Virus record (IMG/VR): IMGVR_UViG_3300027972_000007
Coordinates: 96,001-160,000 of that record
DNA length: 64,000 nt
Source: a virus
Direction: 5' to 3' (one strand)
Below are positions 14,901-17,900 of this stretch, in pieces. The stretch's first letter is position 1. Every line of letters begins with the position of its first letter. Position numbers: made by a program.

Positions 14901-17900
14901 GGGGCACTTTTGGCATAAAGAAACAAATGGCATAATACCTCCCTGCGGTGGCCTACTTATATATACTCATCGCAAATTTTGCACAACGTCCGACAAATGG
15001 TGAAGTTTTTGTACTCAAAAATTTGCGGGTACTCCCCACCATTTGTTTGTTGTACGAAGTTAATTGGCGACTCCGCTTTCTTCTGCCGCCACATCTTCGA
15101 CGAACTCCGCCGAAGCGTCAGGATTTTTTTCAAGCTGCTTGATAGCGTTACAGAGTTGCTCTTTGCCAATAGCCAACTGGAAACCAATACGCGCTTCGGT
15201 CAAATTGTGCCTTGCATTTTCGAGAACTTCCAAAACCGATAGAGACATAACCGATCCTTTCTTTGTGGCGGCCTATAATAAAGACTCACCAATTAATTTT
15301 GTACAACGTTCTTCGCTACTGGTGCTGTTTGTGTGGACACTCGCCCACGTAAATACACGCCAGTTTATCACCAACATTGCCTGTTGAATGCTCACACTCC
15401 GCACTATTGAGAGCACAAATGGCATCCATAGCGCTGTTGTGCGATATAAAATTTTTTTCAACAAGTATTAATGCTTCTGTAACCTCTATTGAGTGTGGAA
15501 AAGGTATTGAATTTAATATTATATCATAAGCATCTTTATTAGTCATATAATCTCCAGAAAAAATTTTATTGCGTACAACGTTCACCGCACTGCGCGAAGT
15601 TGCGCTAAAACTGCATTAAAATCATCATATTGAGCTAATGTTAATTTATCAGACAACTGTTGTTGTAAAGAAATTATTCACCGTTCAATAAAAGCAATTT
15701 TGTTGCTGCGGTTGTTGGCTGTGCCCAGCCCACCTGCTACACCCCCGCTGTGCTGCGCTTCAATGTTTCCTTCTTGCCGGGCGATCTTCCAATCTTTTTC
15801 GTCAACAATAACGTGGCCTTCTGGTAAGTTTTTCTTAAACTCCATGCCCGGATGCCTGTGAAGAAACCCCACCGTATCATTTACTGGATACCCCAAATAT
15901 TCCTGCTTAAACACTTGCATAAAGTTCCTTTCTTTCGCCCGGCCTATAATCAGCGCAGCATTGCAGCCAACGGATTGCAAAGGCATGAAGTTAAGCCCTA
16001 TAAATAGGACAATAAATAACAGCTCCATGCCCTTTACAATTAAAACCATCCTTTTCACCAACAAAAAACTCGGAACATTCCTTATTATTACAAGGCTTAA
16101 TTTTATTCTTTGTCGTGTTGGCTGTGCCCTGCCCACCTGCTACGCCCCCGCTGTGCTGCGCTTCCACCTGCTCTTGTGCGGCGATCTTTTCTTGTATCAG
16201 TTTTGCTTTCCAAATTTCCAGAAGAGCAATAGATTCCGCAAAAGTATAATCACTCTTATAAACCTGCTGCCCATTAAATTCAACAATTGACATCGTTCTG
16301 GTCTTCATTTTTACTCCTCGCCGCACCTATAATCAGCGCAGCATTGCAGCCAACTATACAAAGTATGTAATAACTATATATGTATATCTATTTCTTCTTT
16401 TCATTATAACTCAATATATTATCAACATTTACATGCATTTCTTTTAACATTTTAATTGCTGCTTTTTCTAAAAAATATGATAATGAACCACAAGACTTTT
16501 TACAACCTAATTTTTTAGAATTTAAACAACAAGTTTCAGTTAATTTACTATTCCACATAATTGTTGTCGTTTTTTTATTTATCATATTTATAATATATAT
16601 TATAATAAGAAATAAGTCAAGATAAAAATAAATTATTTTCGGATTAATGACGCTATAATATCGTCATTTAAAATTTCTATCTTAACCATAGTTGTTGACA
16701 TTTCAACCCAATTAGCCTGTCCTGGTTGTATTATAACTGTTTTGCCAATATTAGTTTTCCATACGCCGGTAATAGAATAAGATTCATGAATGTGGCCACA
16801 TAATACTAATAATGGTTGAGTTTTTTCTATCCACTTATATATTGATTTCGAACCGACTCGTTTGCCATTAGAACAAACATCTAATTCCAATCCATGTGGT
16901 GGCTGGTGAATAGACATTATAGTTTTATTATCAACATTTATTTTATCTAAATCTTCTTCTATAGTTGTTCTCTCTCTAAAATATTTTTCTACGTCGTTTA
17001 TTATATAATAACCATTTTTATCAAAATCGCATGGCGTTCCAATATATGGTTCATTACATTTCCAACCAGAATAATCTAATTTGCATGCTGCTTTTAATCC
17101 GAACGGGTAATCTAATACATAAGGATACGATTTAAAATCGTATTCGCCATAATTAAAATATTTCATTTCGTCTAATAATTTACCATATTTTCTGAAATTT
17201 TCTTTCCAAACATACAAATCATCATTACCGAAAGATGTAAGAATTTCTATATCATTTCTTTTGCATGTTGTATAAAAATTCTTTAAAAATCCTTTAATAA
17301 ATTTCTTTTGAGTATTAAATATATCATTTCCTTTTGGCAATATATCTGCACCGAGATGAATTAAATTTATCTCATTTTCAATAGCAAAATTAAAAACATT
17401 TTCATAATGTTTTTCTTTGCCGTGCAAATCTGTAGCATATAAAAATTTCATAATTTTTTTAACAGATTATCCCATAACCAATTTTCTGGTACTGTATATT
17501 TTTTTGCTTCTTCAAAATTTTCCTTAACATACTCTAATTTTTCATTATAATCTTTTTCGCTAATATTTTTTAAAATAACATCTAATTCATCTAATGTTCG
17601 AAAATGATAAAAACCATCTAAATTAAAAAATTTACCGATACTTGGGCAACCCCAATAAATAGGAATTACTCCTGTAACAAAACAATCAATAATTTTTTCA
17701 GTAAAATAATAATCAAAACTTCCATTTTCAACTACTATTTGATAACGATAATCTTTCAAAGCTTCCAACTTATACTCAATCTCTTTATATCCTCTTCCGG
17801 CAATAAAATCAATTTTATCTTTAAACTTTTCTATTATTTGATGTCTCAAAATATGACCGTCAGTATGTTTTTTATTACTAAAAATAACAGATAAATTTTT

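Follow-up and report, generated by a model that had tools for sequence, protein, structure and literature searches.

Recombination-site arms as the probable shared frame around unrelated small genes in a cassette array of a T4-like phage

Two adjacent gene cassettes in a viral genome carry the same leader and the same GC-rich block around coding cores that are unrelated to each other, which raises the question of how one frame came to enclose different genes. The cassettes are located in a window of 64,000 nucleotides, which covers bases 96001-160000 of the IMG/VR virus record IMGVR_UViG_3300027972_000007 (170 kb; estimated completeness 74%), and belong to a 2.4-kb island of small genes. An earlier note, made from the sequence alone, had read the frame as a footprint of cassette genesis, with new open reading frames (ORFs) placed into a reused scaffold. 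Here, the frame is interpreted, with moderate confidence, as recombination-site sequence that is re-used through module exchange, the cassettes being mobile at G|TT by means of an enzyme acting in trans.

The virus carrying the island is a T4-like phage. A T4-type major capsid protein (Gp23) is encoded in the 170-kb record, together with PolB (a family-B DNA polymerase), a DnaB-like helicase and Rad50/Mre11-like proteins. The GC content was found to be about 25% across the window compared to 42% at 14-16.4 kb, and the ORFs in this island are small and all encoded on the minus strand. None of the seven cassette ORFs had a match in Pfam, the island DNA had no match in the phage collection and the Rfam scan of the island, in a database that holds no attC model, gave one chance-level hit only. 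Other stretches of the genome with a higher GC content were considered as further arrays and rejected, as they represent large structural genes. The array and the two cassettes in question are composed as follows:

13889-16354, minus strand: whole cassette array with seven cassettes, delimited by GC profile and junction motifs (first GTT-core G at 16354, last at 13889)
15972-16354, minus strand: cassette A, made up of leader/arm1, ORF-A, block/arm2 and a long attC-like site, the latter encoding the ORF tail
16326-16354, minus strand: leader A, read as R' core plus arm1, ending in a TATAGG box; identical to leader B
15991-16308, minus strand: ORF-A, 105 aa, a mosaic of N-core (residues 1-48), block-encoded linker and Cys-rich tail (about residues 64-105)
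16117-16164, minus strand: block A, read as arm2, with the R'' inverse core at 16124-16117
15965-16124, minus strand: junction site A>B, bounded by R'' and R', which are separated by 145 nt; it encodes the Cys-rich tail of ORF-A
15580-15971, minus strand: cassette B
15943-15971, minus strand: leader B, read as R' core plus arm1
15678-15920, minus strand: ORF-B, 80 aa
15714-15761, minus strand: block B, read as arm2, with the R'' inverse core at 15721-15714

The sharing of leader and block around unlike cores was confirmed. The leaders (16354-16326 and 15971-15943) are identical in 29 of 29 nucleotides and the blocks (16164-16117 and 15761-15714) in 46 of 48, with looser homology over about 25 nt upstream and about 25 nt downstream of the block. 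By BLASTP, ORF-A and ORF-B align over 31 residues around the block only (74% identity), and the profile-profile comparison of the N-terminal cores resulted in a probability of 0.2%. The two cores belong to separate homolog families (37-91% identity). A and B are one arm family with unrelated N-terminal cores. Related leaders, which had also been reported for other cassettes, exist as well: a 7-nt motif containing TATAGG occurs six times on the minus strand of the 2.4-kb island compared to 25 times in the whole 170-kb genome, at a variable distance of 23-32 nt from the GTT of the leader.

The block had been described as an element in front of the attC site, which had to be revised. In both cassettes its last bases are exactly those of the inverse core (CAAC, at 16117 in A and 15714 in B), which makes it a component of the recombination site rather than an independent element in front of it. 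Furthermore, the leader is the reverse complement of both block ends, with 9 nt at the 5' end and 8 nt at the 3' end, which are separated by a Gly-rich coding insert of about 29 nt; for the 9-nt match, shuffling gave a p of about 0.03. In the fold of the A>B junction both block halves pair with leader B and R'' pairs with R', in the minimum free energy as well as in the centroid structure. The leader is probably arm1 and the block arm2, the shared frame being the basal stem of a recombination hairpin.

The other cassettes of the island allow this architecture to be compared between neighbours:

15308-15579, minus strand: cassette C; own arms 15579-15558 and 15457-15436 (86% of 22 nt); ORF-C 15316-15546
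14988-15307, minus strand: cassette D; own arms 15307-15283 and 15073-15049; ORF-D 15060-15248
15055-14981, minus strand: attC-like hairpin of textbook form after cassette D
14715-14987, minus strand: cassette E; own arms 14987-14967 and 14814-14794; ORF-E 14754-14933
14131-14714, minus strand: cassette F/G; two overlapping ORFs, 14445-14654 and 14137-14448
13890-14130, minus strand: cassette H; arms up to 37 nt, starting from 14130 and ending at 13940; TATAGG box

GTT is invariant at all 8 array boundaries and CAAC is found at the end of every arm2. The cores GTTRRRY and RYYYAAC are present, with a partial fit to RRRY, since several boundaries have a pyrimidine at one of the R positions. The terminal inverted arms, which start with GTTG and end with CAAC, have a length of 22 nt in C, 25 nt in D, 21 nt in E and up to 37 nt in H. 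The match of a cassette to its own arm is strong in these four, weaker in A and B, and F/G has no significant arm of its own (p 0.26). In a cross matrix of C, D, E and H, arm1 scored 14.5-16 against its own arm2 and 5-10 against the bodies of the other cassettes; for cassette C the own score was 14.5 and the score against others at most 8. This holds for the whole site family: among 94 cassettes from 13 loci, a score of at least 11 was reached by 44% of the cassettes compared to 2.5% of the cross comparisons. An inverse core that matches the start of its own cassette is the classical footprint of former circles joined at G|TT.

The geometry of the junctions is attC-like, in the order R'', L'', variable loop, L', R'. 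The distance between CAAC and the next GTT ranges between 50 and 145 nt, and this stretch starts and ends with the second helix, L''/L'. Over a set of 14 junctions, taken from the window as well as from related loci, the mean energy of the own L''/L' duplex was -14.3 kcal/mol compared to -6.7 kcal/mol for mismatched partners, with none of 10,000 permutations being as good, and the own partner ranked first in 9 of the 14. Since at least five different L''/L' helix sequences occur, the pairing signal represents covariation. The fold z-scores were -3.1 for D>E, -2.8 for E>F and -4.4 for one site of the related locus L007. With GTT/CAAC cores, own arms and L''/L' covariation, the island represents an integron-type cassette array, as the earlier note had proposed.

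Two cassettes stand out by their content. No ORF led by a ribosome-binding site (RBS) was found in cassette H, which has the longest arms in the island; an ORF-less cassette or a small structured RNA is possible, and Rfam returned nothing for it. The two ORFs of F/G (69 and 103 aa) overlap by 4 nt, a layout reminiscent of two-gene modules, for example toxin-antitoxin pairs.

The modular composition extends into the proteins. The whole-library protein search with ORF-A resulted in 16 piecewise-matching proteins. Seven relatives share the N-core only (residues 1-48) and continue with different tails, at least five of them other than that of ORF-A, and six share the Cys-rich tail only, behind unrelated heads (at least six other heads). 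Two of these six (P0011 and P0015) also carry the block peptide. For ORF-B one relative was found, P0002 (78% identity), which has the same head and a tail diverging inside the block. R'' marks the exact start of the Cys-rich tail and L' its end. Across loci, the first 30 nt of the tail-coding DNA are identical in 27-28 of 30 positions, followed by a middle part that diverges with the four Cys kept. Since the tail spans R'' to L' with conserved DNA at its start, the recombination site itself is translated. Five metagenome loci carrying the tail display the same cassette anatomy. Protein-based locus searches in viral and genome collections with the ORF-B relative, the N-core of ORF-A and the tail gave no confirmed locus. 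In the ESM Atlas only weak structural neighbours were found for ORF-A, the model of which is poor. The part of ORF-C downstream of arm2 (15316-15436) has four Cys, like the tail of ORF-A, and Cys-rich tails encoded by sites may perhaps be common in this cassette family.

A further proposal, tentative and rather doubtful, is that a hairpin of about 150 nt codes for a conserved Cys-rich C-terminal domain and arm2 for the linker, recombination at or near R'' fusing many N-terminal heads to a constant tail. If true, this would amount to a combinatorial diversification of small proteins in phages and in bacteria of the candidate phyla radiation (CPR), run by an Xer-type recombinase, and its presence in this phage would link a large T4-like virus to a Patescibacteria host.

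The frame is re-used around different ORFs in other genomes too, which bears out this part of the earlier claim. Cassette D and the cassette of locus L006 have leader, RBS, arm2 and downstream site in common, with unrelated ORFs between them. Cassettes 2 and 3 of L007 match in 48 of 49 nt of the leader and have an identical arm2 and different ORFs. Further cases were found in L128 and between L137 and L157. In a survey of 305 cassette candidates, 21 leader-sharing pairs were identified; after removal of duplicate DNA, at least seven pairs without protein similarity and two with related ORFs were retained. Searches for the A/B frame itself gave nothing: the exact leader and a block pattern have no match in IMG/VR, and approximate matching detected neither leader nor block in any of the fetched loci.

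For the identification of the site family elsewhere, a junction pattern derived from the island and related sites was scanned in viral and genome contigs. Arrays with this pattern are also carried by further viral contigs, one of them a complete virus of 213 kb in which 13 junctions were found; among the array-bearing viral records checked, only the phage described here is T4-like. In locus L003, the gene neighbouring the cassette array encodes a 58%-identical homolog of the metallophosphatase at 16633-17451 of the window, so that a related phage carries such cassettes nearby. A tyrosine recombinase (PF00589) was detected neither in the whole 170-kb record nor in five other array-bearing viral records. 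As alternative enzymes, a Y1 transposase and a serine recombinase were searched in this phage, and none was found. Two of the five other viral records (G002 and G004, holding L137 and L146) encode a Y1 transposase of the IS200/IS605 type, which is present neither in the window phage nor in the 213-kb virus.

In genome contigs, the pattern was found mostly in metagenome-assembled genomes (MAGs) of Patescibacteria. Many single hits may be due to chance, for which the rough expectation is several dozen hits, and the evidence is limited to loci with several junctions or an adjacent recombinase. A tyrosine recombinase is present in 11 genome loci with the junction pattern, and in nine of them the gene is divergent from the array and 100-200 bp away from the first junction. 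Compared to the XerA/integron-integrase model, the array-side recombinases score around the cut-off (above it in 3 of 7 scanned), and they fall below the cut-off of the integron-integrase model TIGR02249. Their catalytic residues are kept, and about 45 residues of IntI1, in the region of the IntI-specific domain, are absent. The junction consensus is common to phage and Patescibacteria: AACTTC about 20 nt upstream, then AC, then GTT with a conserved 9-nt extension. A literature search found no paper on a Patescibacteria cassette platform with an Xer-like recombinase.

Two types of locus differ in layout. In L157, a 9.3-kb MAG contig reached via locus L080, an Xer-like recombinase (249-1115) lies directly upstream of the array (1120-7100) on the same strand, unlike the divergent CPR loci; the array has a length of about 6 kb and a GC content of 45-53%, with flanks of 30-38%. 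In the CPR loci L024 (820-1850) and L094 (716 and 3201), hardly any sequence separates arm1 from its inverted partner, which results in repeated 'empty' palindromic units at junctions.

The ends of the phage array were also inspected. The same four bases follow the first and the last array G (16354 and 13889), and the GC content drops at both points, which would fit an insertion of the array at a chance R'-like sequence in the phage backbone. The upstream flank of the array is similar to the flank of the first junction in L007. No empty-site relative was found via the flanking 281-aa gene. A sigma-70-like promoter (16592-16620, minus strand; 10 of 12 matches, spacer of 17 nt) is located upstream of a 65-aa ORF (16388-16585) and points into the array head; it could give read-through transcription of the cassettes, like Pc in integrons.

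According to the favoured interpretation, the frame common to A and B consists of recombination-site sequence together with expression signals and is re-used through module exchange. The cassettes would travel in circular form, with strands being exchanged at G|TT. Catalysis would be provided in trans by a tyrosine recombinase of the host, for which the Xer-like kind beside the Patescibacteria arrays of the same site family is a candidate. For A and B, one frame may have been copied and the 5' coding core exchanged afterwards, by recombination within the conserved flanks, that is leader/RBS on one side and linker-arm2 on the other. The same exchange would mix heads, linkers and tails across the cassette pool. 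The identity of neighbouring arms would let arm2 of A pair with arm1 of B and so extend the A>B stem.

Several observations weigh against this interpretation. In A and B the arms match in two short parts (9 + 8 nt, separated by the 29-nt insert), and the significance of this match is only modest. The A>B L''/L' helix is weak and bipartite as well, with a duplex energy of -4.9 kcal/mol and rank 6 the weakest of the 14 junctions, and the z-score of the A>B fold is only -1.9. Canonical attC sites have spacers of 5 and 6 nt between their R and L boxes, compared to 1-3 and 2-6 nt here, with 4-6 nt for the latter in 13 of the 14 junctions. For most relatives the exchange breakpoints are known at the protein level only, and the block is conserved as protein elsewhere (P0011, P0015, L003), so that selection at this level may explain part of its conservation. 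Finally, with no recombinase in this phage and the five other viral records, mobility within phages is inferred only.

Among the other explanations, the genesis footprint proposed in the earlier note survives best, although it is considered unlikely. Here, a dedicated process would place new ORFs between a ready-made leader and an arm2/attC scaffold, for instance by loading ORF-less cassettes. ORF-less units bounded by arms do exist (cassette H, the first unit of L003 and the palindromic empty units of L024 and L094), but they are equally explicable as deletion products. Between D and the L006 cassette the ORF alone was swapped, cleanly between RBS and arm2, and at least seven leader-sharing pairs have unrelated ORFs. 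However, no loading enzyme or intermediate was seen here, and to our knowledge none is known for the loading of ORFs into cassettes. The re-use of the frame is real and recurrent. The frame is not a neutral scaffold, the flanks being arms of one inverted repeat. Since the same cores and tails occur elsewhere with several other partners, simple module exchange fits at least as well as de novo genesis.

It is quite unlikely that the repeats are merely phage promoter and terminator motifs of the promoter-early stem-loop (PeSL) type, moved by T4-like homologous recombination with no site-specific step. The phage is T4-like, its island sits among accessory genes, each leader is preceded by a stem-loop and followed by TATAGG box and RBS, and ORF shuffling by PeSLs has been documented in T4-type phages (PMC2839356, PMC4122927). 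But PeSLs have a sigma-70 promoter (PMC4122927), an early promoter of two hexamers with a spacer of 17 nt that is coupled to a terminator stem-loop, and the promoter scan found no sigma-70 match in any leader. Cassette-specific inverted arms ending exactly in GTTG/CAAC and the L''/L' covariation are not predicted, these sites are also present in viruses that are not T4-like and in bacterial arrays with an adjacent tyrosine recombinase, and the GC content of the island is foreign to the phage.

Conservation at the protein level alone, with the block as linker of a small-protein family, the leader as shared expression signal and the complementarity as coincidence, is regarded as very unlikely. 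The linker peptide recurs with amino-acid changes in P0011, P0015, P0002 and L003, and the short bipartite match between leader and block would agree with it. However, four other cassettes have arm pairs of 21-37 nt in the same positions, the feature is family-wide, the block ends exactly in the inverse core, and the near-identity of the first 30 nt of the tail is found in DNA while the rest of the tail diverges.

A simple tandem duplication of one cassette with subsequent divergence of the cores, which the adjacent position, similar length (383 and 392 nt) and identical ends of A and B might suggest, is effectively refuted, since neither BLASTP nor profile-profile comparison detects any similarity between the cores, which have separate homolog families, and flanks of 96-100% identity are incompatible with divergence beyond recognition over the same time. 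A transposon with terminal inverted repeats or a miniature inverted-repeat transposable element was rejected as well: only a core of about 12 nt is common to the arms of different cassettes, the neighbours of the units are attC-like hairpins and not target duplications, and the record holds no transposase.

Elsewhere in the window, GC skew and gene orientation change sign near 44-45 kb (about 44000-45600), marking divergent transcription blocks, and a tRNA-Met is located at 49622-49699.

In comparison with known systems, the array resembles integron cassettes and clusters of attC sites lacking integron integrases (CALINs) in its co-oriented, nearly always single-ORF cassettes with a GTT core at each boundary, in the inverse core complementary to the own cassette start, and in the order R''-L''-loop-L'-R' with structure conserved over sequence. 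CALINs have been reported in virulent phages (Qi et al. 2023, PMC9892861); as in those, the phage has no integrase. With seven minus-strand junctions and no recombinase, the island is a CALIN, provided that its sites are counted as attC-type. An adjacent IntI with the additional domain, by which a complete integron is recognized, was found neither in the phage nor in the five other viral records. The differences from integron cassettes concern the complementarity of cassette start and inverse-core side (21-37 nt here, 7 nt there), the leaders, which here carry their own TATAGG box and RBS, and the size of some sites, which reach 150-160 nt and are translated as a conserved Cys-rich tail. Unlike in integrons, the recombinase found beside this site family elsewhere has no IntI-specific domain.

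Sedentary chromosomal integrons, e.g. those with the Vibrio cholerae repeats (VCRs) of Vibrio, have homogeneous attC sites around many unrelated ORFs, and this homogeneity has for a long time been taken as a clue to the place of cassette formation. In contrast to these, the shared sequence described here also covers 29-60 nt beyond the crossover, on the 5' side of the ORF, as well as a part of the ORF itself (arm2), and several distinct arm families occur in one short array. The making of integron cassettes and the acquisition of sites by ORFs is an open question, for which this family represents a tractable case, since its frame is long enough to trace, re-used around unrelated ORFs in several genomes, and partly translated.

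PeSL cassettes are similar in their small ORFs, the plastic T4-like region, the repeated stem-loop with expression signal and the modular exchange of ORFs. They differ in the sigma-70 consensus, which is lacking in the leaders here, and in the inverted cassette-specific arms and sites that the phage array has in common with bacterial recombinase arrays. The Patescibacteria arrays beside an Xer-like recombinase have the same junction consensus and the same cassette-own arms; unlike these, the phage has no recombinase or attI-like head, and its array is a foreign insert of 42% GC in a genome of 25% GC. Cassettes of the kind found beside CPR Xer-like recombinases circulate in several types of phages that encode no recombinase, which bears on the gene flow into and out of the little-known CPR bacteria and on the host assignment of phages.
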